From: Patescibacteria group bacterium
Lineage (GTDB): Bacteria; Patescibacteriota; Microgenomatia; Levybacterales; UBA12049
Reading direction: 5' to 3'
Length of the DNA: 64,000 nt
Assembly: GCA_026004395.1 (NCBI GenBank)
Contig: BPJB01000001.1
Span: 841,226-905,225 of the forward strand
Position numbers and translations under genes: made by a program. Position 1 is the stretch's first letter, and the number at the start of each line of letters is the position of its first letter. A model generated the notes under the pieces. That model did not search any database, had not been told where the DNA came from, and saw only the letters and a program-made list of their open reading frames with translations. This document shows positions 1 to 64,000 of this stretch, piece by piece.

Positions 1-778
1 ATACTTTTCAACTTCCGAGACGATCTGCTTAGCTTGCTCTTCTGTATTAATTAAGGTTTTAGTCGTGGTATATTTTCCATCATAAAGAGAAAATATTTCT
101 TGTGTTTCTATTTTTTGCTGTTTTATCTCGATTAAATCAAAGACCGCATCCACTTTCTCTCCACCGCTCTTAAGCATAACAGCATGTATAGTCCAATATT
201 TTTCTTTCTTAAATTTCTCGATCTCTCTTTCTCTTTCCACGATTAACCTCAGTGCTACGCTCTGTACCCTTCCTGCTGAGAGTCCACGTCTTACTTTCTG
301 CCAGAGAAGAGGTGATAATTTATATCCAACTAGTCTATCAAGAACACGCCGTGCTGTTTGAGCATCAACTAAATTGGTATCAACATCGCGTGGATTATTA
401 AATGCTTCTCTGATCGCCTCCTCAGTAATCTCATGAAAAACCACTCTAACAAATTTGTTATCCGCTTTTTTAGCTCCGTTCAAAATTTCTTTAATATTCG
501 CTGCGATTGCCTCTCCTTCTCGATCCGGATCTGTAGCAAGATACACTTTATCCGCCTTTTTTGCAGCAGATTTAAGCTCTGAGATAATTTGTTTCTTCCC
601 ACTGATGATTTCATATTGTGGGGTAAAATTATGTTCAATATCAACACCAAGTCTATTTTTGGGCAAATCCATTATATGCCCCATTGAAAATTTGATCTCA
701 TATCCATTGCCCAAATATCTACTAATTGTTCGAGCTTTTGTGGGTGATTCAACAATAACTAAGTTTTTCATAACCATT
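1..778 (-). CDS. topA: DNA topoisomerase I, N-terminal (Toprim) part; gene continues beyond the window start
   Basis: Reverse-strand translation from ATG at 778..776 gives [58 protein letters not shown]...[10 protein letters not shown]...[14 protein letters not shown], the canonical TopA N-terminus. It is not in the ORF track because it is truncated by the window edge. The listed plus-strand ORFs 455..799 and 810..1016 are antisense shadows. Confidence 0.85.
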
Positions 779-36200: not shown

Positions 36201-37304
36201 CCCACGAATACCCCAACTCCTACACCAACATCTACTCCAACTCCTATTTCTACACCAACACCTACACCATCACCTACGCCAACAAGCACTAATACTCCCA
36301 CTCCACATCCAACCTCTTCAACTACACCTACACCGATTTTAGGACAAACCATAGATCTTTTACCTTTGGCTGATACTTTTGTACGAAAAGACCATCCAAC
36401 CCGCAACTATGGATCATCTACTCATCTTGAATCAGACGGTGATACAAGAGCGATCTCATATCTTAAATTTGATCTTAGAGCACTTGCTGGTAAATCTTTA
36501 ACAACTGCCCAATTATCACTAACAATAACCAATCCGTCTAAACAAGCGCACTATATTTATCTTTTGACCAATACAGCATGGGAAGAATCTACTATAAACT
36601 ATGCAACACGCATAGAACCTACAAACTCTCCTATCGCTTCAATTCCTCCTTCAGACAAAGGCAAAAAGCTTACAATCAATCTTACACCTGCTCTTAAAAA
36701 CCACTTAGGTGAAATAATCACTTTAGCAATTACTTCATCATCTAGCGATGGAATGGACTTCTACTCCAAAGAAGCAGCATCAGGCAAACCACTACTCTCC
36801 ATAGCAACAGATACTCAATCTGTTAGTACATTAAAAGAAGAAGTATTCTTACCTATTGATGATACATTTGTCCATAAAGACAACCCCCAAACCAATTATG
36901 GTTCATGGAAATCATTGGAAGTTGATGGGGATCCACAAAAAATTATATATATGAAATTTGATCTATCAAAGTTAGCAGGAAAAATAATTCGTCATGCAGA
37001 ATTAAGATTTCGTGTTAAAGATACTTCATACTCAACACAGATTATTCGTTTTGTTGAAAATCATCAATGGGATGAGCACACTTTAAATTTTGTAAAACGA
37101 TACCAACCCTCACTACCAATTCGAACAATTCATGGAGGTAAAAAGGATACTTATCTTAACATTGACGTTACCTCAGTTGTACAGCTTAAAGCAGGCACTA
37201 TTTTTTCTTTTTTGATTGAATCAAACGGTAGTGATGGACTTGATATCTACTCCAAAGAGATACCCAATCCTGACTATCGTCCCGCACTGATAGTATCCTA
37301 CTAA
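33276..37304 (+). CDS. Giant secreted multidomain protein: signal anchor, right-handed beta-helix region, purple-acid-phosphatase-like metallophosphoesterase, PT linkers, two tandem DNRLRE-like C-terminal domains
   Basis: Metallophosphatase motifs GDMNPDG, GDFQY, NHDWEPG, YHDPYF, GSQHNYERS. Two ~150-aa internal repeats (LPLADTFVRKDHPTRNYGSS...YLKFDL / LPIDDTFVHKDNPQTNYGSW...YMKFDL) match the DNRLRE domain pattern. The minus-strand ORFs inside are frame shadows of the PT linkers. Confidence 0.6.
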   Translation: MGFLSPITLLYQQLSLKKRYILLTLLLFILLPLFLLVAFRSTELRNRASTTASLEAEDGTVVGDVQIISDASASSGKYIEFSKSNTAIIGTKYYVDCVNGNDNNSGTSENSAWKSLTKASQANLSPGDGLLLKQGCVFSDSLSIPWQATDTAPIVISSYGQGNPPIIRTSVNNSAGVKISGSYIIIQNITAEGIAPTIDPGCSDNSKGYIVGFQLEDGSHHITLRNVKATGNYAGVYIKTNSSFNKILNSTFANNRMMNPLDTASDNDAGAFGILIHGKDNEIAYNTLSGQDACSYDYGRDGADIEVYKGQRNNIHHNIGSNSDAFTELGGDSSIKAADNIYAYNVFTSSLNKSIFLVTRGSGVKYGPVYRTKLYNNSVYLTGGSSQGFVCHAGCSSEILTMRNNIIKAGQKDGYADGTFDENYNLYGGTSQQFTLGPNSKKADPRFTSTINLHLQAGSPAIDAGSQDSISAGYRNDLDNTPVPQGSAVDMGAYEYRSVLGAKTQAIGGQVLQASSKPITIAAVGDMNPDGNTSTTSPSGKNAAAIAAGLANGSIDAFLGLGDFQYSIGNCSSFVNYWNRLWSGTKSKLYWISAPNHDWEPGRNEDLDDFMNGACPGDNVKSAINAQRGFIGNGDPYSFDIGNWHFAMLSTALWRYDTTKARQVTTWLDNDLAQAKAAGKFLVVAYHDPYFTSNTSSHSRETAVKPWIDIMDKYDVRLTLSGSQHNYERSCPVTKDDICAAENDPNGMTAFQVSTGGIGLRSFTSSPSYIVKRFSDTWGWLKLSLYPDGSFSWQFNPVQGSSTDSGFRPAPGSSISPAPTSTPTPSLTPTPLPSPTPTASLSTPTPTATPCPVIPQNAGSVVTSITIPTEGTYAVWSRIKANDEFNNSYFLQIDDSCPYVVGDASLISKDAWSWVNYQNGNPQQKIEINLKQGTHIIKLIARETGVKVDKLLFLSDSSCIPTDLGDNCTASTLPTPTNTPTPTPTSTPTPISTPTPTPSPTPTSTNTPTPHPTSSTTPTPILGQTIDLLPLADTFVRKDHPTRNYGSSTHLESDGDTRAISYLKFDLRALAGKSLTTAQLSLTITNPSKQAHYIYLLTNTAWEESTINYATRIEPTNSPIASIPPSDKGKKLTINLTPALKNHLGEIITLAITSSSSDGMDFYSKEAASGKPLLSIATDTQSVSTLKEEVFLPIDDTFVHKDNPQTNYGSWKSLEVDGDPQKIIYMKFDLSKLAGKIIRHAELRFRVKDTSYSTQIIRFVENHQWDEHTLNFVKRYQPSLPIRTIHGGKKDTYLNIDVTSVVQLKAGTIFSFLIESNGSDGLDIYSKEIPNPDYRPALIVSY

Positions 37305-42027: not shown

Positions 42028-42199
42028 GCTACCAGCCTTAAGATTCTATCCTGCCCAGAGAAATACTGGATGCGGGAGTTTTGTGGTGGGAAGATCACGG
42101 AAAAACCCACCGCATACACTACACTTAGCAAAGTTTCTAAAAATCAGCACTATTGTACCAATTTTCAGCGATGAAAATATCAAAGTGGGGTAATCTCAG

Positions 42200-43720
42200 G
42201 CAATTGCCGGCAGAAGAGGAGACGGGCGAGCGAACGGCACGATTGCCCTTCGCATTCTGGGCGCGTCGGAGAAGACGATTCACTTCTCCGAAGAGAGCGT
42301 CCGCGACTTGATTCGCCCTTTCCTCGACGAATCTGCCAAACGCCTCATCAGTATCGTCGATGAGATGGAGTACTAGGTTGACCACGTTCAGGAACTCAAA
42401 ATCGTTGGCTCCGATCGTGATCGAGACCAGCGTTCGCCGGCCAGCGGCCGATCTCGGTCGGTCGCCGATGACCTTGAGCACCTCGGTTACCTGGTTCCCC
42501 AGCGACTTCGACGGCGGCTGCTGTCTGCACAACCCCAATGCCCTGTTCCTCCAAGCGGTCGCGCCAGAACAGATCATATCGTAGAAGTTAACCTTCTCGT
42601 GCCGTTTCTGAAGCATGCGGGAGAACCCGTCGGGGGTACGAATCCAGAGACTGCCGGCACTGCTCGCCGCTGTCCCGAAGGCCATGGCCCAAGGCGATCG
42701 AGTCGCCGAGAGCGAAGTAATCGATCTCGCTCTGTGCCGACGAACAGGTGCCATTCACGCATCTTTGCTTACTTTCGCAGACGTTGCCACACGCCCCTCA
42801 GTTCTGGGGGTCGGAGGACGTGTCGACGCAGATGCCGGCGCACGGCTTCTTGCCGCTCAAGCAGCGCCTGCATTTGCCTTCGATGAAAACCGTCCCGCAG
42901 CGGCAGGCCTCGATGTCCATCCCCGAGTGCCACCATTCTTCGTCTCCCTCAGCGGGGATTACTCCCCACCTCTTCACCCATTCCTCCCACGGTTCCACGG
43001 TCGGATTCGCTTCTGGTTCCACGGCGTAACTCTCCTGTAAGAGTCTGTTTCAAAACCTCTCGGGAGCTCGGTGTGCATCTGAACGTTAACCACATCTTGG
43101 AAAACGATAGGTTCGGGGGGGTTCATACTTCAGGTTCTTCGGATATCGTCGCTCGTTGACGTCGCCGGAAAGTGTTTTCTGTGGTATAATTTACTTCGGC
43201 AGGGGCGAAACGGCGTTAGATCGCCGTCACGGCTGGGAGTGATCGCCAGCCGTCCGAAAGCTTGCGGGTAATCGGCCGGGATTCCTAGGAAAGCTTGGAC
43301 CCTTCTGGGTAAAACGAGCCGCAAGACGGCAGGTGCAGCATGATGGGCGCACGTCCCATCCACCCCGCCTAAGAGAAGCAGCCCACCGAGTTGGCTCGTG
43401 GGCTGCCGCCTAGATCCTTATTCGGTTACTTGCGCGGAATGTACTTGCTCGGGATGATGATGTCCTGCCGGCCGAACGGACCGCCCCTACATCATGCAGC
43501 GTCCCATGGACGCCCCAGATTTGGTCGCCACGGCGGTCATAGCACATGTGCGCACCGTCGGTGAAGATGCTCACGTGTTGCCAGCCGCCCGGCCTGAATT
43601 CGATCTGCCCGCCCTTTGCCCCTGGAGGAAGAAGGTTCCCTCCGAAGGAAGCGTTTTGACCTGAGCCAGCCATTTCCCGACTCCTGCGGAAAAGGGATGT
43701 GACCCCGGCGGTTTATGGAA
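42200..43720. other. GC-rich (~60% vs ~35% background) foreign island with only fragmentary coding potential
   Basis: Abrupt composition shift; ORFs open in nearly all six frames. The minus strand encodes a GDSL/SGNH-hydrolase-like fragment (LVSITIGANDFEF) and a fragment ending PGGWQHVSIFTDGAHMCYDRRGDQIWGVHGTL, resembling the C-terminal H-X9-DG signature of Planctomycete DUF1559 prepilin-type proteins. Confidence 0.6.
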
Positions 43721-43742
43721 TCGTCACCTGGATGGTGAAACA
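43720..43742. repeat. Direct repeat copy B of atcgtcacctgga(a/t)ggtgaaaca; copy A is at 41689..41711
   Basis: 22/23 identical. Both copies mark the start of the IS4-like transposase fragment sequence (IVTW.VK) and bracket the GC-rich island. Confidence 0.7.
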
Positions 43743-43794
43743 GATTCGCTACCTGACAATTTGATAAATGAACTAGATGCGTAAATATAGATAA

Positions 43795-45275: not shown

Positions 45276-46067
45276 ATGATAATCGAAAGAAAAATAAACA
45301 GACGAGAAGCTATTACCTACCTAGCAGGCAGTATTGTCTCAACCCAAAATTACATTGACAATCGCTATGAGCCAAAAGAACAACTTGAACAGCGATCTTT
45401 TGAGGTAGTGTCAATCACATTCCATGAAGTTGCAAACAGCGATCAAATGCTTCAGATTATTTATCCCCTGCTTAATGAAGGGTATATTCCTATCTCTATC
45501 AGAGATGTTCTAAAGGCTATCAATAATCAAGTAGATCTTTCCAAGACCAAATCTTTATTGATCACTCTTGATGATGGCTTGAAAAGCCAAAAAAATGCAG
45601 TATTGGCAGCAACTCAGGCTGAAAAATCATGGGGTGTTACTCTCCCTCTTCTTTTTGCTGTGATGACGCAGTTTAATTATTATAACGACGATCAAATTCC
45701 TCTACATACTCCATCGTACAATGATCATGTGCATGAATACTTAACCAAAAAAGACATTCTGCAAATCATCGAAAATCCATCTTTTGATCTAGCTAATCAT
45801 ACGCTCAATCACGCTGATCTGACTAAACTTAATGATGACGATCTTATCGGAGAGTTAACAATTGCGCAGAGAAGGCTATCTATTCTCTATAGCGAAGCAG
45901 GAAGACAAAACACACCAAGAATACTTATCTATCCTTTTGGAAAATATAATCAGCATGTTTTACAAACTGTCTCAGATCTTGATTTTGAAGCAGCTTTCAC
46001 CACCAAAAATGATACATTGTATTCGGCTAAAAAAAGATTGCGTTTGGGAAGAATAGGAAAAACTTAA
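45276..46067 (+). CDS. Polysaccharide deacetylase (CE4 / NodB-homology domain)
   Basis: ITLDDG (the TFDDG-type motif), ANHTLNHADL His motif, YPFG. Confidence 0.6.
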   Translation: MIIERKINRREAITYLAGSIVSTQNYIDNRYEPKEQLEQRSFEVVSITFHEVANSDQMLQIIYPLLNEGYIPISIRDVLKAINNQVDLSKTKSLLITLDDGLKSQKNAVLAATQAEKSWGVTLPLLFAVMTQFNYYNDDQIPLHTPSYNDHVHEYLTKKDILQIIENPSFDLANHTLNHADLTKLNDDDLIGELTIAQRRLSILYSEAGRQNTPRILIYPFGKYNQHVLQTVSDLDFEAAFTTKNDTLYSAKKRLRLGRIGKT

Positions 46068-46086: not shown

Positions 46087-48204
46087 CTATTTAACGTAGG
46101 TTAATCTGATATAAAAAGCTCCACTCTTCCAAGATGGACTATTCACATAAGTAGAATATTTCAGAAAATCCAAATCTGAGTAACTAGTCTGTGTCGTCCC
46201 ATAAAAAACAGGTGCAGCAGAATTATCAAACCTTAAGATATAATAAGCATTTGCTTTCAAAGCAAGATTGACAGTTGCATAATACCACGAAGATGATACA
46301 CCAGCTGAGGTTGTATTGGCAATTTCACGACCAAATGTACCTGTGCTATCTGACTCATACAGCACAAAACGTGTACTGCTGCCACAACGATAGCACTCAA
46401 CTTTTTTAAGAGTCATATCATTTTTAACTCTAAAAAGAGTGCGTTTAGAATCGTATGTATTAAAGTACGAAAGATTGGTCAGGCTAGGATAGGAACTCTG
46501 AACAAAAGTTTGTTGGACAGACGTTGTAGGTGTTGGGGTGGGAGTTGGTGTTGGTGTAGGCATAGGTGTAGCTGTAGGCGTTGGTGTTAATGTAGGTGTT
46601 GGTGTCGGTGTTAGAACAACTGTAGGTGTTGGTGTCGGTGTCGGTGTTGGAATAATTGTTGGTGTTGGAGTAGGAGTTACTTGTGCTGAGCCGGAAGAAA
46701 TAGTATAGACAACTGTTGCCTGATTGTTGCCGTATGTTGCCTCTTTACCTGTTTGTCCGTTATTAAGATAAATTCTTGCTGTATATGTACCCTCGATATC
46801 CTTAGACCATGATTTACCATTGGGAAAGAAAGATCTATCAGCACTTACTGGACTAGCATCAAACGAAACAGTACTAAATCCGGGAATTTCTGCCACTTTA
46901 AGATATACATTCACATCCGAGGAAGTATTTTTCAGAATAGGATCTGGCGCATCAGACATGACAGGTGATGTCATTGTACCGCTGACGACGCGCACCGGGC
47001 GATAACCAAGGTTACGTACTTTAATACGAGGATAGATCTGTCTTCCCGGAGGAAATACTGTCCTCTCTACTCCATCGCTATCTGTAAGTGCAAATTTTTC
47101 TACCACTAAATCTCCATAGCTATCTCCTGATGGAAGAGGTATCTCAACACCTGCTTTAATCGGTTTTCCAAAAACAGGAGCACCAGTTGATCCCCAAGTA
47201 AATTTTTGAGCTCTGATTGTCCTTTTCTCAGAAGAGCTAGTAGTATTGCGGGCATGATAAATAATCCAATCCTCTGTACCATCTGGTGACTTGGTAAATG
47301 CATTGTGTCCCGGACCATATACCCCATCTGTTTGCTTGAAAACAGGAGAAGATCTTTTGGACCAAGATGAAGGATTTAGCACCTTACCATTACTATTGGT
47401 GATCATCCCTAAACAATAATCAGGAGTAGCAAAAAAACTAGCTGAGTAAGTAATAAATGTTTTGCCATTTCTCTGGAGTACAGCTGGTCCTTCAACTATA
47501 CCAAATGTTGTACCATTCCATCCCTTCTTCTCCCAAGAATAAGTAGCCTGTACTATTGATACACGATTGCCACTTATAGTATAGGGATTGCTCATGGGCG
47601 CTATATAAATTTGTTGCCATGCTGTCAGATCCGTCCCCGGTCGTCCCGACCAGACGAAATACAGTTTGCCATCAGTGTGTCGAAATACTGTACCATCAAT
47701 AGCCCAAGCATTAGGAGCATTGGGTGGAGCGATTTTGCCTTTAAATGTATATGGACCCTGTGCATCCTGAGTCTGTGATTCCAAAACGTACATCCTATGA
47801 TAATGATCATCCCCATTATCAGCTGCAAAGTAAATATACCATCTGCCATCTAGATAATGAATTTCAGGTGCCCAGACATTGCAGCAATACATCGTTCCTG
47901 CCGGAGCAGTCCAGACGACTACTGGTTTGGCATATTTTAGATCAACTGGCGATTCTGTCTTCCAAACTGTTATTTTGCTACCTTCTGTTTTGACAAAGTA
48001 ATAATAACCATCTTTATAAAATATGTGTGGATCAGCGCCAGTCATTAGAGGATTAGTAAATGTCTGAGTTGATGCCTGAACAGGATGAGTTGAATTTCCT
48101 ACGGCAGATACCCCCAAGATAAGTAGGGCAAGAGAAAGAAAAAAGATAATTCCTTTTTTAGTAAACATATAAATCTGCTTAAATTCCCAAGGATTATATA
48201 ACAA
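46087..48204 (-). CDS. Secreted GH43-family glycoside hydrolase with CARDB-like domain, long PT linker and C-terminal beta-rich domain (probable start at 48168)
   Basis: GADPHIFYKDGYYYFV and WAPEIHYLDGRWYIYFAA five-bladed-propeller GH43 signatures. The CARDB-like segment (RQIYPRIKVRNLGYRP...TYTARIYLNNGQ...NNQATVVYT) is paralogous to the one in 24121..25365. 50-aa TPTPTP linker. Confidence 0.65.
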   Translation of the reverse strand: MLYNPWEFKQIYMFTKKGIIFFLSLALLILGVSAVGNSTHPVQASTQTFTNPLMTGADPHIFYKDGYYYFVKTEGSKITVWKTESPVDLKYAKPVVVWTAPAGTMYCCNVWAPEIHYLDGRWYIYFAADNGDDHYHRMYVLESQTQDAQGPYTFKGKIAPPNAPNAWAIDGTVFRHTDGKLYFVWSGRPGTDLTAWQQIYIAPMSNPYTISGNRVSIVQATYSWEKKGWNGTTFGIVEGPAVLQRNGKTFITYSASFFATPDYCLGMITNSNGKVLNPSSWSKRSSPVFKQTDGVYGPGHNAFTKSPDGTEDWIIYHARNTTSSSEKRTIRAQKFTWGSTGAPVFGKPIKAGVEIPLPSGDSYGDLVVEKFALTDSDGVERTVFPPGRQIYPRIKVRNLGYRPVRVVSGTMTSPVMSDAPDPILKNTSSDVNVYLKVAEIPGFSTVSFDASPVSADRSFFPNGKSWSKDIEGTYTARIYLNNGQTGKEATYGNNQATVVYTISSGSAQVTPTPTPTIIPTPTPTPTPTVVLTPTPTPTLTPTPTATPMPTPTPTPTPTPTTSVQQTFVQSSYPSLTNLSYFNTYDSKRTLFRVKNDMTLKKVECYRCGSSTRFVLYESDSTGTFGREIANTTSAGVSSSWYYATVNLALKANAYYILRFDNSAAPVFYGTTQTSYSDLDFLKYSTYVNSPSWKSGAFYIRLTYVK

Positions 48205-54436: not shown

Positions 54437-57400
54437 TCAGAGTCTAAAAGGAGCTATTTCACCAGCTCGGAATTGTTTGCCATGTCGCATAAGCTTATCC
54501 AAACCATCAGAAATCATAGAGCTATAATCAACAATAGTATTCCCCTCAATAGAGGGAGAACTAGTTCCATTCTTTTCTAACCAGGTTACATAAATTCTAC
54601 CAGAGGATAAGATATTAGCTCGAGCACCAACAATATCATCTTGTGAGGTGTTTAAAGGCCCTTGCTCATTACTCCAAGTCCTCATTCCATCTGTTGATTT
54701 CTTCCAGTAAATATTCATAGTAGCAGTATTAGAAGGTGTGGTAGCTGCAGTATAGAAATAATAAATATCACCAGTATTTTCATCGAGTGCAACTTTGGCA
54801 TTGGTCAATCCTCTATCGTTACATCCAGTACCGCTGGAACAGCTATCAGTAATTACGTTGGATGTCAGAGTCCATACCCCGTTACTATAGACGGCACTGC
54901 GCGCATCATCGTTAGAACCCAAAGTAGAGTTATCAGTAATATATCCAAGATAAATTTTATATGTTTTTGGATCCTGAACAACTCCCCACTGAGCTTCATA
55001 CGTAGCATTATCTGGGCAGGTTCCACCACAGTCATCAATAGTTACCCAACCTGACCAAGTAGATGTTGTATCTGTAAAGATATTAGAAAGAAAACGAAGA
55101 TTGGTATCATCAAAACGAATAACCATTATATCTCCATTTTCTAATGGTAGGATTGCAATCTCATCATCGTTATCTGTACCCAAAGGATTAGAGGGGACAT
55201 TGCTCCAGTTAGAAGCATTAGTGCAGTTGCTGTTTACCGCATCACATCTCACAAAAAGTGAAATATCATCGCTAACAGCAACATAAAGTTTACCATTTGT
55301 TGATTTGCTAATAAAAGGTATACTACTTGCTGAAGAATATGTAGCCCCATTTGCAATAGAAATAGTGGTTGAGGCTGAATCATTGGAAGTATCTAAACGA
55401 GTGTAATATAAATCATCAGCGCCATTATCCTTTGTTAAAACATGGATATAATTCCCCGTATCATTGGGTGTCCAACGATCATACCAGACAACAACTTGTA
55501 TGCAATCTGTACTATTTACTGAGTCAATTGTCACTGGTGATCCCCAAGTAACACCTCCATTGGTAGTTTTTTTATAGACACAATTACCAGATGAGTCCCT
55601 ATAAAAGGTATAACCTATGTTTTCATCAAGAAAAACAGTATCTGCTCCTACTCCATCTTTTGCGGAAGTTGTAGTATGAACTTGGTTATCAATTTGTGAC
55701 TGAGCATCGATAGCAAGCTGCCAGAATCTAGGCTCGGTGTAAATTAAGTTAAATTTTGCTGACTCGGAAGACATGCTCAAGGTTGTACTAGATAATTCCT
55801 CATTGGGAAGTGCGGATATAGCTGATTGTGATGCAGATTTATTTTTATCAGTGTGAGAAGCTGAAGAAAATTCAGAGTATGAGCTGTCATTAGAAAAAGA
55901 TTGACCTAAAACTATAGATTTTCCAGTTGTGGATTCGTAAAACCTTAAATGTCCAAGAAGATAAAATTGAGGGCTTTCCGAAGGAACCTTATATCTATAT
56001 CCCAAAGTCTTCGACTCTCCTTTTTTAAGAACCACATCCCATATAATTAACTGCACAGATTCCTTAAGATAACTGTTTTGCTCAATTCCCAATAATGGTA
56101 GTGGGTCTATTTTGCCGAAAAAACCATTATTTATATCATTATCATTTAATTTGATACCGAAATGAAGATGTGGGCCAGTTGAGAGACCAGTATTACCTGA
56201 CAAGCCAATGATCTGCCCTTTCGCTACTGAATCTCCCTCCTTAACTAAAAGCTTACTTAGATGTCCATAATATGATCTACCCCAGAGGTGTTCAATCACA
56301 ATAGTAGTGCCATAATCCCAATTCTCTTTTGCTATAAGCACCTTACCTTCATCAACTGAAAGCACATCAGTACCATAAGGAAGAGCAAAATCAACTCCAT
56401 CATGTCCCTTAACACCAAAGTCTAAATATTTCTTTTTAAGCAAAGGGTCTATTTCTTCACTACCGAAAGCTTGAGTTAGAGGATAAAACCCTTTGAAAGG
56501 AAGTAACAAACTTGAAGAAGCTGAAAGGACTGATGCGTTGGAAAAACCCTCTGTATTCTTGGGAGAGATAATTTTTAGATTGGTAAATTGCAAACTCCCA
56601 TCATCTGGTGGAAATATACCAAAATTATTAGGTACTACCTCTACTACTTTTCCTTCAAAATCTTGACTTGCTGTTATTACTATTGACATAGGATATAATA
56701 ATGGTGGATATATTCTTGTGGCACTTTTTCTTTCAATTGTAAAATTATCCTCTTGACTTTTGGAGATAAAATTATCTTGAATACTATATGTTCCATTTTG
56801 GGTTTTGGCTATTAACCTGACATTAAACACTCCTTCATTTGGTACAGTATATTCTGCCTCATAGTCAGGAGATAGAGTAAATTCTTTTTGTCCGCATACA
56901 GGGTTAACTCGTATTTTTCCATTTTTGGTTGAGAGCTCCTCTTGAATTTGACCATTCTGCTGAGTAATAAACAATGTAACATCAGCATCACAGACTATTT
57001 CTCCTCTTTCATCAAGCACAGCAATAGAAAAATTAACTTTCTCAGAAGGTTTATAAACTGCTTTGTCAGTATTTAATGCAAGTACACCCCAAGTGAAATC
57101 CTGTTCAAAAGTATTTCCTCCTTGTTCTGTAACAATTATTTTGTATTTCCCTGGCCTAAGTTTTTGAGATGGCTTAATTGTGACCAGTTGGGAATTATCG
57201 TGAGTAACAACTTCAGGTTTAATTTCCGTAGTATTGCCTTCAGAATCTACCACATTAATTTCTAAATTTGTATCACTAGCATTTTCAATAACAACATCTA
57301 CTTCCTCATCTGCCCGATAATCTTTTTTAACTAATTTTTTAATAAACACACTTTTCTTAATAAGTGCAGATTTAAGTTCTGCAAAACTATTATCTATCGT

Positions 57401-57622
57401 AAGCTGCTGCGACACTGAAGCTGTTGGTTGCAAAGAGTTTATAATCTCAGTAGCTACAGGCTTAGTAAAAATAGTCTCTGATATACTATCTTCTTGGGCA
57501 AAAACGAAGTTACTCTGACTATCAAATAAGAGCTTCAGTATCAACATCGCAGAAAATACAAGTATTCTGCGCTGTAACATCCTTTTAAACTCATTTTTAA
57601 GCAAAAACATCAAAACATTCAT
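54437..57622 (-). CDS. Giant secreted protein with central M23 (LytM-type) peptidase domain, N-terminal Ig-like regions and C-terminal beta-propeller/sialidase-like region
   Basis: HDGVDFALPYGTDVLSVDEGKV...HLWGRSYYGHLSK...GLSGNTGLSTGPHLHFGI gives the M23 HxxxD and HxH motifs. Signal peptide. Its start overlaps the stop of the upstream fibre gene. Confidence 0.65.
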   Translation of the reverse strand: MNVLMFLLKNEFKRMLQRRILVFSAMLILKLLFDSQSNFVFAQEDSISETIFTKPVATEIINSLQPTASVSQQLTIDNSFAELKSALIKKSVFIKKLVKKDYRADEEVDVVIENASDTNLEINVVDSEGNTTEIKPEVVTHDNSQLVTIKPSQKLRPGKYKIIVTEQGGNTFEQDFTWGVLALNTDKAVYKPSEKVNFSIAVLDERGEIVCDADVTLFITQQNGQIQEELSTKNGKIRVNPVCGQKEFTLSPDYEAEYTVPNEGVFNVRLIAKTQNGTYSIQDNFISKSQEDNFTIERKSATRIYPPLLYPMSIVITASQDFEGKVVEVVPNNFGIFPPDDGSLQFTNLKIISPKNTEGFSNASVLSASSSLLLPFKGFYPLTQAFGSEEIDPLLKKKYLDFGVKGHDGVDFALPYGTDVLSVDEGKVLIAKENWDYGTTIVIEHLWGRSYYGHLSKLLVKEGDSVAKGQIIGLSGNTGLSTGPHLHFGIKLNDNDINNGFFGKIDPLPLLGIEQNSYLKESVQLIIWDVVLKKGESKTLGYRYKVPSESPQFYLLGHLRFYESTTGKSIVLGQSFSNDSSYSEFSSASHTDKNKSASQSAISALPNEELSSTTLSMSSESAKFNLIYTEPRFWQLAIDAQSQIDNQVHTTTSAKDGVGADTVFLDENIGYTFYRDSSGNCVYKKTTNGGVTWGSPVTIDSVNSTDCIQVVVWYDRWTPNDTGNYIHVLTKDNGADDLYYTRLDTSNDSASTTISIANGATYSSASSIPFISKSTNGKLYVAVSDDISLFVRCDAVNSNCTNASNWSNVPSNPLGTDNDDEIAILPLENGDIMVIRFDDTNLRFLSNIFTDTTSTWSGWVTIDDCGGTCPDNATYEAQWGVVQDPKTYKIYLGYITDNSTLGSNDDARSAVYSNGVWTLTSNVITDSCSSGTGCNDRGLTNAKVALDENTGDIYYFYTAATTPSNTATMNIYWKKSTDGMRTWSNEQGPLNTSQDDIVGARANILSSGRIYVTWLEKNGTSSPSIEGNTIVDYSSMISDGLDKLMRHGKQFRAGEIAPFRL

Positions 57623-60600
57623 TAGAATTTGGCAAGATAATTAAGGATAATATCTCCTACCTGAACATAATTATTGTTTTTAGAATACATTTTCAGATAA
57701 ATCACCATAGTTTCACCCCCAGTATCGATATCACGATTAGCTCCAGAATCCAATTCAGATGCGGAAATTGTAATCTCGCTCCACGTCTTCTGAGTAGATG
57801 AAACATTTGCCTGACGATAAACAACAGGCGTTGCTTGATCAACAGCGCTTAAAGAGATATCAGTGTTATAGATCAGAACATCCAGTTTATTAGAATCTGT
57901 AGTCGTTAACTCTGTATTAAATTTGATTTTAATTGCAGAATCAGTTGTTGCCCAAGCAGAAAAATCACGAGGGAGAGTCACTCTAACAGCAATCGTATAA
58001 TCATTAAGAGTACTCTGAGAAGAACTCCACTCATAATAATTTTGAAAGTTAGATAAAGCAGCAGAAGGCGAAGCATCGGAGATCATTGTGCCAATAGTTG
58101 TTGCCGATCCGGAAGCTGTTAGGATAGCACCCGGATATTCAGCTGAAAGGGTAATTGTTTTGAGAGGACGTCCAGCACCAGTGTATACAAAACCTTCTCC
58201 AGTTGACCCACCAGATTCAATAACTATTCCCCTCTCCCAACCTGTTCCAATACGAAGCGCTGTTGTAGTCACATTAGCATGATCACCACCTCCTAAATCA
58301 CCTATGTAAATTCCCTCGAGTGTTGATGATGATCCCGTATTTCCCCGAGTGATATTAACCCTTAGTCCAGAATTATCAACACTTACCGTAGTCCCAGAAG
58401 TTTGAAAATCAATCTGCAAACCATCAACGTTAGATGAAGAAGTTCCTGTAGTATTTGAAATATGCGAAAGATCAACAGTTGAATCTGATACAGAAACAAC
58501 ATCAAGCAAATTGGATGGAACTGTAGTCCCGATGCCGACGTTGCCGTTGTTGTCAATGAGGAACTTAGTTAATCCTGACTTACTGGCAGTGAAGATGGCC
58601 TGATCACCAGTTTCATCAAAGATGGCAAGGGCTTTGCCAGTTTTGGCTCCTTGGACTTTAAACAATCCCTCAATTGAGTTCGTGCCGATACCAACATTGC
58701 CGTAAGTACCAGCTCCACTTCCCGGACCAACAAAAAGAGTTCCAACAGTTGAGTTAAATCCAATAGTTAAAGAATTGGCTACAGTGCTATTAAGATGGTT
58801 GAGAGTATTAACACCAGTACCAATAACAATCGCATTATTAGCATTGGAATCAGCTCGTTCCCCAATGACAATACTACCCGCATTATTCGCCGTACTGAGA
58901 TTACCAAGCACCAATGAATTACTCCCAGCTGCCGTGCTGTTATTACCTCCGGCAACAAAAGCATAAGTACCCGATGCAGTATTGCCATAGCCAAATGCCG
59001 CTGAGTAATTACCTGATGCTACTGTAAAATTACCTGTTGCAAAAGAATGTGTACCACTTGCTCTTGCTGATTCACCAAAAGCCACAGAATAACTGCCAAT
59101 ATTACTGTCATCCCAATGTGTACCACCTGCTCTTCCGGCTCTAAATGCTGCTTTGGCTGGAATCCACATCATCCGATTTCCAGCACCTGATGTTGGAGTA
59201 GTGCCAAAAGTAGTATTACCAGTTGCCAAAATTGATCCTCCTTTGGTGATTTGCAAAGCATCAGCAAGTCCTGTGTCTCCACCGGGAGAAATCCTGATTG
59301 TAAGACTACCACCATTCAAAAGATTGAGTTGATTGGCAGGAGTTGCACCTGTTGGTACAGCTAGAGAAAGATTACCTGAGATGGAGGCTGTTGGTATACC
59401 GGAGTTGATATTCAGAAAACCAAACTTGGCGCTACTGGTTGCTGTACCGCCCAAAAGAATATCTAAGGTATTATTAATTGGGAAAAGTACTCCGTTTGCT
59501 GAATCAAGCGTCCAATTTGATGATCCTCCACCTCCAACCGGACATGCGCTCCATGAAGGAGCGTATCCTCCTCCACCTGAGAGAAGACATAACCCACTAG
59601 TGCTTGTCGTAGCAGCACTTAAGACTCCTGTACCAGCAGTGGCAAAAAGTACTGCATTGTTGCCTGTAAAGGCAGGAAGCGTAAGTGTACCCCCTGCTTT
59701 TCCCAATGTTACACCTGTTGTATTTGCTCCACCGCCTAGAATGATAGTTCCTGATGTCAGAGAATCTATCCCAGAGCCTGCCGCAAGCAAAATATTTCCT
59801 GAATTAGATAAGACAAATTTTGTTATCCCGGATGATGAAGCTGTGAATAAATCCTGTGCCTCATACTGATCAAAAATTACCAATGCTTTACCTATTGCTG
59901 TTTGAGAAGCGTTAGAGACTGCGAATTTGCCAACAGGATTGGTCAGACCAATACCTACATTACCTGTACCATTGGGTATAATTGCCAAATCCTGATTGGA
60001 GACTGTAGTAATATCTGTTGAGGCTGATGAGAAGACAAGTCCTGTTGAACCAATAGTCTTATTCGTCAAAGTCTGTGCCAAATCTAAAACCACAACAGTA
60101 TCATTGGCATTAGGAAAAGTAATGGTTGTACCATCAGTACCCGAAAAAGTAATACTGTTGTTAAGTACTACTGTCTTTCCATCTCCAATCTTAAGAGTTG
60201 TTGTTGATGAGAAAGGATTATCTGCAGTATTAGTTACAGTCAATCCATTGACCTTTTGAGAGTTGAAAGCATAAGGAGTGGCTGTTAAGCGAATAAATGG
60301 ACTCATCTCACCATCCCAGCTAGGTGTTGTTCCAGTACCGCCTACATTAATTGAGAGCCAAAGAGTATCTTGATTCCAATCTACATTTGTTCCAAATGCT
60401 GTCACAGAGCCAAGATTTACACGAAAAATCCCATCTGTTACAGCAACTTTATTAGACCCTGTTCGCGTCTCTGTCCATTTAAGCGTCTCATCACCTCCAC
60501 CGGGGACACCATCTCCTCCCTGATAAATTTTAAACTCCAGATTATAATCGCCGTTTGCCACATTGGTACCATCACTATTAACCAGTTTGCCCTGAAAGCT

Positions 60601-60726
60601 AACTGTTTGATTAATACCTACGGCAGCGATAGCAATCTCTGGCAATAAAAAAATACAAGTTAAAATAATGAATGCGCAAAATATTACTAAAAATGATTTT
60701 AAACGGATAAAGATAAACATAAACAA
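57622..60726 (-). CDS. Giant Gly/Ser/Thr-rich tail-fibre-like / YadA-head-like repeat protein (putative adhesin fibre)
   Basis: Signal peptide. Repeated ...GNVGIGTTVPSNLLDV... and SGTHSFATGNFTVASGNYSAAFGYGNTASGTYAFVAGGNNSTAAGSNSLVLG motifs are typical of trimeric fibre/head repeats. Duplicated module KALVIFDQYEAQDLFTASSSGITKF / KALAIFDETGDQAIFTASKSGLTKF. Confidence 0.5.
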   Translation of the reverse strand: MFMFIFIRLKSFLVIFCAFIILTCIFLLPEIAIAAVGINQTVSFQGKLVNSDGTNVANGDYNLEFKIYQGGDGVPGGGDETLKWTETRTGSNKVAVTDGIFRVNLGSVTAFGTNVDWNQDTLWLSINVGGTGTTPSWDGEMSPFIRLTATPYAFNSQKVNGLTVTNTADNPFSSTTTLKIGDGKTVVLNNSITFSGTDGTTITFPNANDTVVVLDLAQTLTNKTIGSTGLVFSSASTDITTVSNQDLAIIPNGTGNVGIGLTNPVGKFAVSNASQTAIGKALVIFDQYEAQDLFTASSSGITKFVLSNSGNILLAAGSGIDSLTSGTIILGGGANTTGVTLGKAGGTLTLPAFTGNNAVLFATAGTGVLSAATTSTSGLCLLSGGGGYAPSWSACPVGGGGSSNWTLDSANGVLFPINNTLDILLGGTATSSAKFGFLNINSGIPTASISGNLSLAVPTGATPANQLNLLNGGSLTIRISPGGDTGLADALQITKGGSILATGNTTFGTTPTSGAGNRMMWIPAKAAFRAGRAGGTHWDDSNIGSYSVAFGESARASGTHSFATGNFTVASGNYSAAFGYGNTASGTYAFVAGGNNSTAAGSNSLVLGNLSTANNAGSIVIGERADSNANNAIVIGTGVNTLNHLNSTVANSLTIGFNSTVGTLFVGPGSGAGTYGNVGIGTNSIEGLFKVQGAKTGKALAIFDETGDQAIFTASKSGLTKFLIDNNGNVGIGTTVPSNLLDVVSVSDSTVDLSHISNTTGTSSSNVDGLQIDFQTSGTTVSVDNSGLRVNITRGNTGSSSTLEGIYIGDLGGGDHANVTTTALRIGTGWERGIVIESGGSTGEGFVYTGAGRPLKTITLSAEYPGAILTASGSATTIGTMISDASPSAALSNFQNYYEWSSSQSTLNDYTIAVRVTLPRDFSAWATTDSAIKIKFNTELTTTDSNKLDVLIYNTDISLSAVDQATPVVYRQANVSSTQKTWSEITISASELDSGANRDIDTGGETMVIYLKMYSKNNNYVQVGDIILNYLAKF

Positions 60727-60946
60727 AACAATAAATCACAGAGAAGTTTTGAAATTTTTAATACCTATATTAATTAGAAAATTTTCTCAGGATGAGGTCA
60801 AATTTTTACAAATATTGCATAAAATGATTTAATATTGCATATTTTTGCATATTTAATTAATGCATAAAATTTTTATTTCAACACAAAATCTCTTCCACTT
60901 GCCATAAATTGGTAATTTTTTTAAACTGATTTTAAAGGAGATTAAA

Positions 60947-62026
60947 ATGCCAGAACAACTCCTCAAAAGATTTTTTTTAATTTTTATGATGATTTTATTA
61001 ATCAACATTACTTTTTTTTCTACTATTGTTTTTGCCGGTCCAACAAGTACCAACTTCAAACTCGAAAGCTATACTTTTGGAGGAGGCGGATCAGAAGCTA
61101 CATCAACAAATTACAAAATTCAGGGAACGATAGGAGAAATCTCAGGAAAATCCAACTCTACAACATTTAAAATGGGTGCAGGATTGACTTTTCTTCTGAA
61201 TGCTCATACACCTCCTGCACCGACTCTTAGCAATCCCGGATCAAACTACGATCGTCTGAAGATAATTATCAATCAAGGTGGAAATGCTCCAGATGTCACC
61301 TATGCACTTGCTATTAGTACTGATAATTTTGTCTCTGATATAAAATACATCAAAAGTGATGCCACAGTTGGCACTACACTTTCAGCAAGTGATTTTCAAA
61401 CTTACTCCAGTTGGGGAGGCGCTTCCGGGTTTTATGTTACTGGACTTTCACAAAATACCACATATTACGTTAGAGCCAAAGCACGACATGGAACAGTAAG
61501 CTATACTGAGTCCGAATGGGGACCTGCAACAAGTGGTGTGACAACTTCAGTACCCACCCTAACATTTAGCGTCAGCTCCAGTACTGTTACCTTTGATAAT
61601 CTCAACGCAGGCAATTCCTATACTGATAGTAGCAAAACAACCGTGCTTACTGTATCAACCAATGCATACAACGGATATGTTGTCAACGCTAGATCAACAG
61701 GTCCTCTAACTAACGGATCCAATACCATTGCTGACTATTCAAGCCCCAACTCAGCCCCAACCGTCTGGAGTGGAACAGGATTTGGTTATACCACCAATGA
61801 CAACGATCTCTCAGGTGGAACAAACAACAGATTTGCATCAGGGACAAAGTATGCAGGATTTACTACCGCATCTCCCGGAGATCCCGTAGCTGATCATCAA
61901 GGACCAGTTACATCTCCTATTAATAATGAACAATTTACTATTAGCTATAGAGTTACAGCTGACTCATCAACAAAAGCAGGCACCTACACAACTACTGTTC
62001 TTTATAACGTAGTACCAGAGTATTAA
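60947..62026 (+). CDS. Secreted surface protein, WxL-domain-like C-terminus (paralogue of 63057..)
   Basis: Signal peptide; C-terminus ...SSTKAGTYTTTVLYNVVPEY resembles the WxL-domain end (KAG.YT.T..W.L...P); shares TNA.NGY.V.A and PT.WS..GF.GYTT.D blocks with 63057..64000. Confidence 0.4.
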   Translation: MPEQLLKRFFLIFMMILLINITFFSTIVFAGPTSTNFKLESYTFGGGGSEATSTNYKIQGTIGEISGKSNSTTFKMGAGLTFLLNAHTPPAPTLSNPGSNYDRLKIIINQGGNAPDVTYALAISTDNFVSDIKYIKSDATVGTTLSASDFQTYSSWGGASGFYVTGLSQNTTYYVRAKARHGTVSYTESEWGPATSGVTTSVPTLTFSVSSSTVTFDNLNAGNSYTDSSKTTVLTVSTNAYNGYVVNARSTGPLTNGSNTIADYSSPNSAPTVWSGTGFGYTTNDNDLSGGTNNRFASGTKYAGFTTASPGDPVADHQGPVTSPINNEQFTISYRVTADSSTKAGTYTTTVLYNVVPEY

Positions 62027-62045
62027 TTTAAAACAATATCTTTAT

Positions 62046-62984
62046 ATGTCGAAATATATCTTAAGGATAATTAATCATACAATAATAACTTTATGTTCTT
62101 TTTGGGTACTGTTATTTATTTTGTCATCCAATGTGCAGGCTATTTCTCCTGCTGATCAAAGATACACTATTCGCGTATCTCCGCTTATTATTCCTCTCTC
62201 ACTTTCTCCTCAAAAAGTAATCAAACAAGAAATAATAGTAGAGAATTTAAGCAGCAAACCCTACCCACTAAAAGTTAATTTTTCAGATTTTATCTCAACA
62301 GAAGATGGTGGATATGTTTTCCCTGAAAGAAACACCTCGCCTCTTATATCTTGGATCAGTGTAAAACCTACAGAGTTTATCATACCTGCAAAAGCAAAAC
62401 AAAAAATACTTGTTACTATCAAAACACCCCGCGATATACCTGTTGGAGGATATTATGGAATGCTTTTTTTTGAGCCGGTACTTCCTATCTCGAGTACAAA
62501 GTCAACACAGATCATCAGCCGTGTTGGAGTCCTTTTACTAGGAACAGTAGGGGTGATCAATGAAAAATCTCAAAAAGCTCAAATTGTAACATTTAGTCTT
62601 CCTCATCTGATTTTTGATCGCAAAACAACACTGCTCTTGCGTGTAAAAAATATTTCACTGCATCATTTTACAGGAAAACCTATTTTCTCACTATCTCCAC
62701 TTTTTGGAGAAGAAACCAAACAATTTCTTGAAGAAAAAATAGTCTTCCCCGGTAAGATAAGGCGCTGGGAAATACCAATTGAGGTCTCAAAATACCCCAT
62801 AAACTTTGTAAAAGTGAAGCTTGATCTATCAACTGGTGGAGGCAATATAGTTACTGCTCAGACGTTTGTTGTCGTCTTCCCTTTCACTACTATTATAGTA
62901 ATAGCAATAATAATTTTAATTGCTCTTTTAGCTTTAAAAAGAAGGCGTCAGCTGATCAAGGCGCTGCATATTCTCATCCGATAA
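62046..62984 (+). CDS. DUF916/DUF3324-like cell-surface protein: signal peptide, chaperone-like beta domain, C-terminal TM anchor with basic tail
   Basis: N-terminal signal peptide; C-terminal IIVIAIIILIALLALKRRRQLIK anchor; size and topology match the membrane-anchored partner in Gram-positive WxL clusters. Confidence 0.4.
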   Translation: MSKYILRIINHTIITLCSFWVLLFILSSNVQAISPADQRYTIRVSPLIIPLSLSPQKVIKQEIIVENLSSKPYPLKVNFSDFISTEDGGYVFPERNTSPLISWISVKPTEFIIPAKAKQKILVTIKTPRDIPVGGYYGMLFFEPVLPISSTKSTQIISRVGVLLLGTVGVINEKSQKAQIVTFSLPHLIFDRKTTLLLRVKNISLHHFTGKPIFSLSPLFGEETKQFLEEKIVFPGKIRRWEIPIEVSKYPINFVKVKLDLSTGGGNIVTAQTFVVVFPFTTIIVIAIIILIALLALKRRRQLIKALHILIR

Positions 62985-63056
62985 AAAACTCAAGTTTTAT
63001 TATTTTATTACTTTTATTACTTGACAAATAATATCAAAACTCATATTGTTAAAATA

Positions 63057-64000
63057 TGCCTGTCCTATATAGAATCTTAACAAAAAAACAGTTGCTGCAG
63101 CAACTTAAGCGTTATTTAGTACTTCTTCTAGTTCTGCTTCTTATACTTCCACCATTCTCTCCTTTAACTGTCTTGACAGCGAATGCAGGCACACTCAGCA
63201 ACGCAAAAGTACTGATTAATAACTCTCAAGCTAGTGCAACCAATGTCAGTTATAACTTCAGGTTTACAACTCCGGCAACAACAGCCATTGGTAAAGTAGT
63301 CATCCAATTCTGTACTACCGCTTCGGGTTCATGCACTACTCCAACAGGAATGACGACTACAGGAGCCACGCGTGTCAATGATAATATTGCTGGAACTGGA
63401 CGAACAGATACATTTACCACCAACGGCACAATTTCAGTAGATATCACGACCCCAGCGGCACAATCTGCACAAAATGTAGTCATGGATTTTACAGGTATTA
63501 CTAATCCCTCAACTACCAATACATCACACTTTGCTCGTATCACTACCTATCAATCAGATGACACAACAGTACTTGATACTGCAACAGTTGCTTTTGCTAC
63601 TCTAGACACTAGCTCCATAGCAGTCTCAGCAACAGTTGATCCAACACTCACTTTTACAGTGGCAGGGGTTACAGGAGATGGTTCAGCAACTGTCAATGGT
63701 GCTACGATAACCAACGGACTTGCAACTACAGCCACCACAATACCATTCGGTACGCTCACTGTAGGCACACCTAAGATTGCTGCCCATGATGTAACGATAA
63801 CAACCAATGCAGTAAATGGCTATACAGTTACAGCCTCCCACTCTGCTACATCTCAAACAGGAAATCCACCTCTTGTCTCTGGTACATCCAATAACATTGA
63901 CAGCTTCACTGGGACCAATGCATCTCCTACCACATGGTCATCTCCAGCTGGAACAAGCGCTAATGTCAATACAGGTTTTTTTGGATACACAACGGAGGAT
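63057..64000 (+). CDS. Secreted surface protein, partial (runs off window end); paralogue of 60947..62026
   Basis: ATG at 63057 (MPVLYRILTKKQLLQQLKRYLVLLLVLLLILPPFSPLTVLTANA signal peptide); Thr/Ala-rich beta domain; absent from the ORF track because no stop lies within the window. Confidence 0.45.

Follow-up and report, generated by a model that had tools for sequence, protein, structure and literature searches.

A surface locus of a Microgenomatia bacterium with probable Pam-type pilins, WxLIP-related chaperones, a MAT-like fibre and an M23 peptidase

Bacteria of the candidate phyla radiation (CPR) may represent a substantial fraction of all bacterial diversity and seem to spend their lives attached to other microbes, yet little is understood of how they attach and feed. 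Here, we describe a surface locus at the end of a 64,000-nucleotide stretch (the window; contig BPJB01000001.1, positions 841,226 to 905,225) from a member of the Microgenomatia, an ultra-small Patescibacteria/CPR bacterium with a metagenome-assembled genome (KatS3mg089) of about 35% G+C. Two reverse-strand genes, encoding a fibre-like protein of 1034 amino acids (aa) and a 1061-aa protein with a peptidase M23 domain, lie divergent to a forward-strand operon, of which the window holds the genes for two secreted proteins (pilins 1 and 2) and, between them, a membrane-anchored protein (chaperone 1; Table 1). A preliminary description had interpreted these genes as a putative locus for attaching to a host and breaching its wall, with a triad resembling Gram-positive WxL clusters. 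All of its open reading frames (ORFs) proved real and correctly placed, and its interpretation, largely on target for one made from the sequence alone, was partly supported. We consider the locus to be probably a Microgenomatia variant of the Pam pilus system.

The three forward-strand genes had been described as a triad, and they are present, but they are only the first three of a five-gene operon that extends beyond the window. A public contig (L001), which equals the window sequence with 0 mismatches across 11,922 bp, carries the complete operon, encoding a pilin of 359 aa, a chaperone of 312 aa, a pilin of 382 aa, a chaperone of 314 aa and an N-anchored protein of 139 aa for which no family match was found. 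The same order, pilin-chaperone-pilin-chaperone-139 aa, recurs in most of roughly 50 Microgenomatia-type loci. The two chaperones are paralogous (24% identity, E 1e-10), while the paralogy proposed for the two secreted proteins applies to their C-terminal domains, in which about 140 residues are 36% identical (E 2e-14), and does not reach beyond them. On the reverse strand, the fibre gene's stop codon has one base in common with the first M23 ATG (TAATG), and the annotated M23 start lies 11 nt downstream; in either case both genes are co-transcribed, in agreement with the coupling noted earlier. A scan for promoters and terminators, including promoter-like hexamers at 60899-60948(+), gave counts not above those of shuffled sequences.

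Table 1. Genes and domains of the locus; positions are those of the window unless contig L001 is named.
Feature	Residues	Position (nt)	Strand	Basis
Secreted/membrane protein, 777 aa		52079-54412	+	Pfam, transmembrane (TM) segments
Mosaic M23 metallopeptidase, 1061 aa; signal peptide		54437-57622	-	ORF
M23 protein, immunoglobulin (Ig)-like/MG2-like module	~87-351	56570-57364	-	Pfam MG2
M23 protein, catalytic domain	406-498	56129-56407	-	PF01551
M23 protein, BNR/sialidase-like C-terminal module	~637-1061	54440-55714	-	Pfam BNR_2
Fibre protein, 1034 aa; signal peptide		57622-60726	-	ORF, TTG start
Fibre, conserved N-terminal module resembling mosaic adhesive trimer (MAT) fibres	~26-270	59917-60651	-	NF053851
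Fibre, trimeric-autotransporter-head-like repeats in variable Gly/Thr-rich stalk	534-646	58789-59127	-	PDB phmmer, Pfam
Fibre, C-terminal module	~720-1034	57625-58569	-	coverage map
Fibre-pilin intergenic region, 220 bp, AT-rich		60727-60946	.	presumed divergent promoters
Pilin 1, 359 aa		60947-62026	+	ORF
Pilin 1, signal peptide	1-31		+	AlphaFold2 (AF2) model
Pilin 1, segment with three STN[FY]K repeats	32-84		+	AF2, low confidence
Pilin 1, fibronectin type III (FnIII)-like beta-sandwich	~90-200	61214-61546	+	AF2 and Foldseek
Pilin 1, Pam-type C-terminal domain, beta-rich	205-359	61559-62023	+	NF058581, AF2
Chaperone 1, 312 aa		62046-62984	+	ORF
Chaperone 1, Ig-like domain 1	42-168		+	AF2 model
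Chaperone 1, Ig-like domain 2	178-277		+	AF2 model
Chaperone 1, C-terminal TM helix, then cytoplasmic KRRR	280-298		+	AF2 model
Pilin 2, 382 aa in full; signal peptide, N-terminal domain rich in Thr (22%), C-terminal domain of Pam type		63056-64000, cut by window end	+	complete at 11011-12159 of L001
Chaperone 2, 314 aa, C-terminal TM helix		L001, after pilin 2	same operon	PF06030, 25.6 bits
N-anchored protein, 139 aa		L001 13112-13531, just past window end	last operon gene	kept in most Microgenomatia-type loci

The Pam pilus is a donor-strand pilus of CPR bacteria, reported in a preprint of 2026 (Troman et al., bioRxiv 10.64898/2026.03.03.709456). According to this preprint, the filaments of the CPR parasite Ca. 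Mycosynbacter amalyticus, resolved by cryo-electron microscopy (cryo-EM), consist of two-domain pilins linked by donor-strand exchange, and the operon includes genes for PapD/FimC-like chaperones that bear a transmembrane helix at the C-terminus, but none for an usher. The components comprise PamA/PamB pilins, PamC/PamD chaperones and, as accessories, the PamT tip and the PamE and PamR terminator/anchor, the conserved neighbourhood includes a 'tail fibre-like' gene and ATP synthase genes, and distant homologues occur in Microgenomatia (10.64898/2026.03.03.709456).

Both secreted proteins of the window match the NCBIfam model for the C-terminal domain of these pilins (NF058581, CPR_Pam_pilin_C; cut-off 55 bits), pilin 1 with E 5.7e-13 (49.2 bits) and pilin 2 with E 4.2e-6 (26.9 bits), and all 43 aligned members of the pilin 1 family match it at E<=0.01. 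Pfam returned nothing for either protein, and PDB sequence searches with pilin 1 and with a profile of 23 diverse CPR C-domains gave no match. The AF2 model of pilin 1 (mean predicted local distance difference test, pLDDT, 78) has the two-domain layout of an N-terminal beta-sandwich and a C-terminal domain, and Foldseek searches of the PDB matched only FnIII domains, to the middle domain. The PamT model (NF058579) matches pilin 1 at its N-terminus only, over the first ~70 residues, where the STN[FY]K repeats match the N-terminus of the model, and the repeat segment is possibly a donor or recognition segment. Pilin 1 has 602 homologues, the top 120 of them at 56% identity or more, and is unusually conserved, with a mean column identity of 58%. 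The two flanking proteins are thus better described as Pam-type pilins than as WxL-like, and by homology to PamA/PamB they may be expected to assemble into donor-strand filaments.

The protein between the pilins had been called DUF916-like, membrane-anchored and chaperone-like, and this description is borne out at the level of both fold and sequence. In its AF2 model (pLDDT 89.7), chaperone 1 begins with a signal peptide, continues with two domains of beta-sandwich fold and ends in a helix followed by KRRR. The top Foldseek matches in the PDB are the WxLIP of Enterococcus faecium (9i1y and 9i25, chain C; E 7e-12 to 5e-11), the latter entry being WxLIP 'bound to long WxL', followed by the chaperone-usher chaperones CfaA, Caf1M, FimC, CsuC, EcpB, PapD and CupB2 at E 1e-9 to 1e-7. 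The Pfam model PF06030 (WxLIP_PGBD, formerly DUF916) matches 23 of 39 chaperone family members (best E 2e-12), and chaperone 2 scores 25.6 bits with a gathering score of 27.3; chaperone 1 itself has no Pfam match, PF06030 staying below threshold and PF11797 (DUF3324) undetected. With one family member as tblastn query, annotated DUF916 proteins were retrieved from plasmids of Streptomyces, Arthrobacter, Clavibacter, Paenibacillus, Enterococcus and Deinococcus. Alignment of the CPR chaperone family with six genuine DUF916/WxLIP proteins in hhalign gave 99.2% probability (E 1.3e-19, 233 columns), and both this alignment and the Foldseek superposition (255-260 aligned columns) cover both chaperone domains. 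When searched against PDB sequences, the CPR chaperone profile likewise placed the same WxLIP chains on top (E 0.02).

Conversely, a hidden Markov model (HMM) of the six monoderm WxLIPs matched chaperone 1 at 5e-11 and, in total, 147 ORFs spread over 76 of the 81 CPR pam loci, including those of Saccharibacteria, WWE3 and Woesebacteria (best E 4e-26). The WxLIP relationship thus applies to Pam chaperones generally. The Pam preprint (10.64898/2026.03.03.709456) mentions neither WxL nor DUF916, and no coupling of WxL with donor strands or with CPR was found in the literature searched. The homology between Pam chaperones and WxLIP therefore goes beyond that literature and links two surface systems so far described separately. 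No usher-like gene was present in the operon or among its neighbours.

WxL-like C-termini had also been proposed for the flanking proteins, and here the preliminary description did not hold. Neither the window proteins nor the 23 diverse CPR pilin C-domains matched Pfam WxL (PF13731) at E<=10, by inspection the flanking proteins contain no W-x-L motifs, and an E. faecium WxL protein used as query matched no PDB sequence. Genuine WxL-domain proteins encoded beside DUF916 genes were gathered from plasmids for comparison, and hhalign of the pilin C-domain with seven WxL domains gave a score of 25.8 (P 0.003) that came from the last two strands alone. The column-shuffled control gave 9.0 +/- 1.5 with a maximum of 13, but since beta-rich families presumed unrelated reach 18-28 among themselves, we do not count this score as evidence of homology. 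Some motifs resemble each other, namely TNAxNGYxV in the pilin and D-x-RG-x-x-GW-x-L in WxL, and AGxYttTvxY...P-x-Y in the pilin and AGTYksvfTYtlTsGI in WxL. In reciprocal HMM searches, four of five small WxL-type ORFs were among the six best-ranked of 269 plasmid ORFs (p 3e-7) and 16 Pam ORFs among the 50 best of 2479 CPR ORFs (p 5e-8), the individual scores being insignificant and the signal a weak rank enrichment only, at p of about 1e-6 to 1e-8. With nothing but weak collinear similarity and rank enrichment left, the flanking proteins were rejected as WxL proteins, and because WxL domains were looked for and not found, the locus falls outside the WxL cluster family as defined. What stands of the proposed resemblance to Gram-positive WxL clusters is the WxLIP-homologous middle gene and the gene order.

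During this comparison, small secreted proteins annotated 'hypothetical' were noted directly upstream of DUF916 genes in Arthrobacter (L084, 4251-4760) and Clavibacter (L087, 4248-4874). Both look like WxL domains that have diverged, Pfam WxL matching one at E 5.5e-4 and the other not at all, and WxL-type clusters thus seem wider and more divergent than Pfam indicates. The Clavibacter cluster lies beside GH43 glycosidase genes and a Streptomyces one (L088) beside a glycoside hydrolase gene.

The divergently encoded fibre protein is rich in Gly (13.2%), Thr (12.6%) and Ser (10.5%). Its N-terminal fragment matches the NCBIfam model Bdello_MAT_N (NF053851) at E 1.4e-4 and 21.7 bits (cut-off 60), and 19 of 20 fibre family members match the same model, the best at 8e-10. 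In Bdellovibrio bacteriovorus, the invariant N-domain of MAT fibres is thought to bind an element of the predator surface, while swappable adhesive tips recognise the prey (Caulton et al. 2024, PMC10769870). Further along the protein, residues 534-646 match the head of BpaC (7o23; E 3.7e-5 in PDB phmmer) and also Pfam YadA_head. Head repeats of the YadA/BpaC type form obligate trimers in known proteins. The 598 homologues of the fibre share only parts of it: in a coverage map of 117 of them, the N-terminal ~40-260 is covered in about 100, the middle in ~40 and the C-terminal ~720-1034 in about 55-65, and homologues bear alternative modules (Peptidase_S74, CBM_4_9, Kelch or M23). The fibre family thus has the mosaic, swappable C-terminal parts on a repetitive stalk that define MAT fibres. 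The label 'tail-fibre-like' was imprecise, the resemblance being to Bdellovibrio MAT fibres and the heads of trimeric autotransporter adhesins; PHROG searches gave no hit for the fibre, and tblastn against 50,697 phage genomes found nothing.

Among Microgenomatia-type loci with at least 1.5 kb of upstream sequence, the fibre N-module is encoded divergently just upstream of pilin 1 in 45 of 46, with a median gap of 962 bp. This link is tighter than the fibre-M23 pair emphasised earlier, and the fixed neighbourhood suggests that the docking partner of the fibre belongs to the pilus system. Both the MAT-like nature of the fibre and its fixed place beside the operon go beyond the literature searched.

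The peptidase assignment of the 1061-aa protein was correct: its M23 domain scores 96.6 bits with PF01551 (cut-off 28.7) and the zinc/catalytic residues are intact (H407xxxD411, H454 and H485xH487). A search against 1.84 billion cluster representatives returned 1049 relatives at E<=1e-30. Among the best 150, residues ~80-565 (Ig-like module and M23 domain) form a conserved unit of 40-50% identity, joined to C-termini of varying length (490 to 3325 aa), and the BNR-like propeller (637-1061) is also found independently of this unit. The protein was accordingly rejected as an enzyme specific to this locus, belonging instead to a very widespread modular family.

The pairing of fibre and M23 genes, whose conservation in relatives had been suggested as a check, is rarely conserved, recurring only in L015 among about 50 loci. 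A functional link of fibre, M23 and surface operon is nevertheless supported by the divergent fibre-pilin arrangement and by fusions of M23 to the fibre N-module and to the Pam pilin domain. Three proteins (P0240, P0242 and P0287) start with the fibre N-module and carry at the C-terminus an M23 domain, 52% identical to that of the window in P0240 and P0242 and 39% in P0287. In Woesebacteria, an ORF of at least 3575 aa (L064, 2-10726) combines M23 (Pfam 88.8 bits) with the Ig-like module and has a Pam pilin domain at its C-terminus, and the Ig-like module occurs in seven further giant proteins (1795-3023 aa) with this C-terminal domain, from Woesebacteria, WWE3 and Saccharibacteria-type loci. 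The M23 fusions, which go beyond the literature searched, make a role at the tip of an appendage plausible, and hence action on a foreign wall; an attack on the host wall is plausible, if unproven.

Giant proteins (1795 to at least 3575 aa) ending in the Pam pilin C-domain were observed in L072 (4415-10504), L074 (4361-10684), L064, L068, L070, L071, L075, L078 and L081, and in this they parallel the 'large WxL proteins' of Firmicutes. In six loci (L005, L006, L008, L009, L015 and L020), small M23 proteins of 333-395 aa are encoded 6-9 kb downstream of pilin 1, a few kb past a homologue of the 777-aa protein, on the opposite strand and convergent with its gene. In the window, the 777-aa and M23 genes are likewise convergent, so this pairing may predate that of fibre and M23.

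The 777-aa protein is secreted and has an Ig/FnIII-like region, three transmembrane segments and a CarboxypepD_reg domain (Pfam). In about 20 related loci a homologue is encoded immediately next to the pilus operon, either downstream or upstream of it, and the protein is a candidate anchor or assembly component; neither it nor the 139-aa protein matched any Pam model in NCBIfam. Elsewhere in the window are further envelope and glycan genes near one another, for a 1342-aa CBM96 protein (33276-37304), a 192-aa protein whose pilin domain is that of a type IV secretion system (PF18895; 38469-39047, reverse strand), a polysaccharide deacetylase (45276-46067) and a GH43 protein (46087-48204). A ~1.6 kb island at 42100-43750 has 58-62% G+C within the ~35% G+C genome and contains two overlapping ORFs (205 and 141 aa); it had no Rfam match even at E<=0.1, the 205-aa ORF had no Pfam match, and the island may have been acquired horizontally, be a chimera of the assembly or encode a structured RNA not yet described. 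Many of the contigs with a CPR-type operon (L002-L081) are labelled 'uncultured Gammaproteobacteria', Methylomirabilota, Limisphaerales, Acidimicrobiia or Bacteroidia, probably, judging by their gene content, through placeholder taxonomy or bin contamination.

Taken together, the locus suggests the following mechanism. Two Sec-secreted pilins, each consisting of a beta-sandwich at the N-terminus and an incomplete Ig-like domain at the C-terminus, would be held after export by two cognate chaperones of PapD-like two-domain fold, homologues of the Gram-positive WxLIP (DUF916/DUF3324) kept in the cell's own membrane by their C-terminal helix. By donor-strand exchange, the subunits would then link up head to tail in a thin filament, without an usher. 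The 1034-aa protein would be a secreted, probably trimeric MAT-like fibre, docked at the cell surface or pilus through its conserved N-terminal module and recognising a partner or host surface with its mosaic distal parts. The M23 protein, judged from its sequence to be an active-type peptidoglycan endopeptidase with an Ig-like stalk and a glycan-binding-type propeller, would most likely cut peptidoglycan locally at the contact site. Gene content, domain homologies, folds, synteny and fusions are observed directly, whereas polymerisation, trimerisation, the docking site of the fibre and the owner of the wall that is cut are inferred.

That the locus is a Microgenomatia variant of the Pam system, with pilins, chaperones, fibre and M23 protein acting in these ways, is in our judgement probable, and several observations weigh against it. 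Both pilins (49.2 and 26.9 vs 55 bits) and the MAT match of the fibre (21.7 vs 60 bits) fall under the curated NCBIfam cut-offs, the window chaperones match no NCBIfam PamC or PamD model, and no gene of the PamR, PamE or PamT type was recognised at the locus. ATP synthase genes are absent within about 10 kb, unlike in the published Pam neighbourhood, and filaments have not been seen for any Microgenomatia member. The M23 protein adjoins the fibre in just one further locus of about 50 (L015), only the BNR module being found there in L024, and the very wide distribution of its N-terminal module (1049 clusters) may mean a general envelope role.

A non-filamentous complex of the kind currently envisaged in Firmicutes, in which wall-bound monomers are each stabilised by a strand of a WxLIP-like protein and no pilus is formed, would account for the WxLIP homology of the middle protein and for the order of small protein, WxLIP and small protein. 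The commonest WxL cluster combines a single WxLIP with a pair of WxL proteins, and in AF2 models a WxLIP strand completes the WxL beta-sandwich (Hassan & Williamson 2023, PMC10599100), which is donor-strand complementation in all but name. We consider this improbable, since the flanking proteins match the Pam pilin C-domain model and not Pfam WxL, members of the Pam family have been seen as cryo-EM filaments, and the conservation of pilin 1 (58% mean column identity) is as expected of a polymerising structural subunit. Far less credible still is a remnant of a prophage or tailocin, with a tail fibre and a tail-associated lysin: the M23 domain does match many PHROG families of endolysins and tape-measure proteins, and the 'tail-fibre-like' label was used in both the preliminary description and the Pam preprint, but the fibre is without counterpart in the PHROG and phage-genome searches, the vicinity contains no phage genes, both proteins carry signal peptides for the Sec route, and in 45 of 46 related genomes the fibre gene keeps its fixed divergent place beside the pilus operon. 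The presence of its N-terminal module in nearly all relatives examined might suggest that the fibre is a housekeeping protein of the S-layer or envelope with no relation to the pilus, but this is very unlikely. Only the N-terminal ~240 residues are conserved, the rest being mosaic with tips swapped between S74, CBM_4_9, Kelch and M23, a pattern that fits adhesins under diversifying pressure and not lattice-forming proteins, and the head repeats are those of trimeric adhesins.

A serious rival, even if we regard it as rather unlikely, is that the M23 protein, and possibly the fibre, serves the producer's own envelope, opening or remodelling its peptidoglycan for pili and fibres or for division. 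Dedicated wall hydrolases accompany many trans-envelope machines, and such a role agrees with the extreme spread of the M23 N-module in CPR, with the small M23 proteins near the operon in the six loci named above and with the lack of conserved fibre-M23 adjacency. The fusions in other CPR, in which M23 sits at the far end of fibre-type proteins or on a giant pilin with the Pam C-terminal domain, would instead place the enzyme away from the producer's own wall, and the BNR/sialidase-like propeller is typical of glycan-binding modules.

If the Pam reading is right, one genome has the genes for a pilus side by side with those for a mosaic adhesive fibre and an enzyme that cuts cell walls, and fusions elsewhere in CPR show that these parts have recombined repeatedly, forming a concrete and testable candidate set for host capture and entry. 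The homology of Pam chaperones and WxLIP further ties a CPR system solved by cryo-EM to the poorly understood WxL clusters that serve virulence and colonisation in enterococci, listeriae and lactobacilli, and suggests a different mechanism for these. More tentatively, and as a proposal that we hold to be slightly more doubtful than secure, Pam pili and the WxL/Csc systems of Firmicutes and Actinobacteria could be two branches of an ancient monoderm system of membrane-anchored chaperone plus strand-complemented subunit, while CPR, separately, would mount exchangeable payloads on the scaffold to breach host envelopes. WxLIP has been read as a bridge whose helix enters the host membrane (PMC10599100); if our proposal is true, it would instead be an assembly chaperone in the producer's own membrane, WxL proteins might be assembled or polymerised by donor-strand exchange, and CPR payloads would include M23 wall-cutting domains fused to pilin or fibre modules.

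Compared with known systems, the locus shares with chaperone-usher pili (Pap/Fim, Caf1, CFA/I, Csu) no more than the fold and the presumed mechanism and is not a member of that group. The chaperone fold (Foldseek E 1e-9 to 1e-7) and the presumed assembly chemistry of donor-strand complementation and exchange are shared, whereas the usher and outer membrane are missing, the chaperone is membrane-anchored, the pilins have two domains and a relationship at the sequence level is undetectable. With WxL/Csc clusters (Siezen 2006; PMC10599100; PDB 9i1y, 9i25) the locus has in common a middle protein of two Ig-like domains and a C-terminal transmembrane helix, the order of small secreted protein, WxLIP and secreted protein, and 'large' versions with long N-terminal regions and the same C-terminal domain (here L072 and L074). 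It differs in that its flanking proteins have neither a Pfam WxL match nor the two W-x-L motifs, and chaperone 1 stays under the PF06030 threshold with PF11797 undetected; an LPXTG partner was not seen in the operon or its immediate neighbours, although it was not searched for specifically. WxL systems are moreover pictured as wall-bound complexes, unlike the filament-forming Pam.

The M23 protein resembles the LytM/lysostaphin-type endopeptidases of peptidase family M23 in its full catalytic domain above the Pfam threshold with HxxxD, His and HxH, but here the domain is embedded in a 1061-aa secreted mosaic, with an Ig-like stalk that is common to the giant pilins and a BNR-like propeller. 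The fibre shares with MAT fibres, which likewise belong to a bacterium living on other bacteria, the conserved N-terminal module, the long repetitive stalk, the swappable C-terminal tips and, in some family members, the S74 intramolecular chaperone domain, while its producer is a monoderm CPR bacterium, its N-domain match is below the cut-off, its trimer is putative, its gene is fixed beside a pilus operon and its stalk carries YadA-like head repeats. The closest likeness is to the Pam system, equally from CPR, with Sec-secreted pilins of N-terminal beta-sandwich and Pam-type Ig-like C-terminal domain, two pilins and two chaperones per operon, PapD-like chaperones with a C-terminal transmembrane helix, no usher and a fibre-like gene nearby. 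From the published system the locus departs in its sub-cut-off NCBIfam scores, in its lack of recognised PamR, PamE and PamT equivalents and nearby ATP synthase genes, in the FnIII-like N-terminal pilin domain and in its extra conserved partners, the 139-aa anchored and the 777-aa membrane protein; further, its fibre gene is a fixed divergent partner, with which an M23 peptidase gene is co-transcribed.

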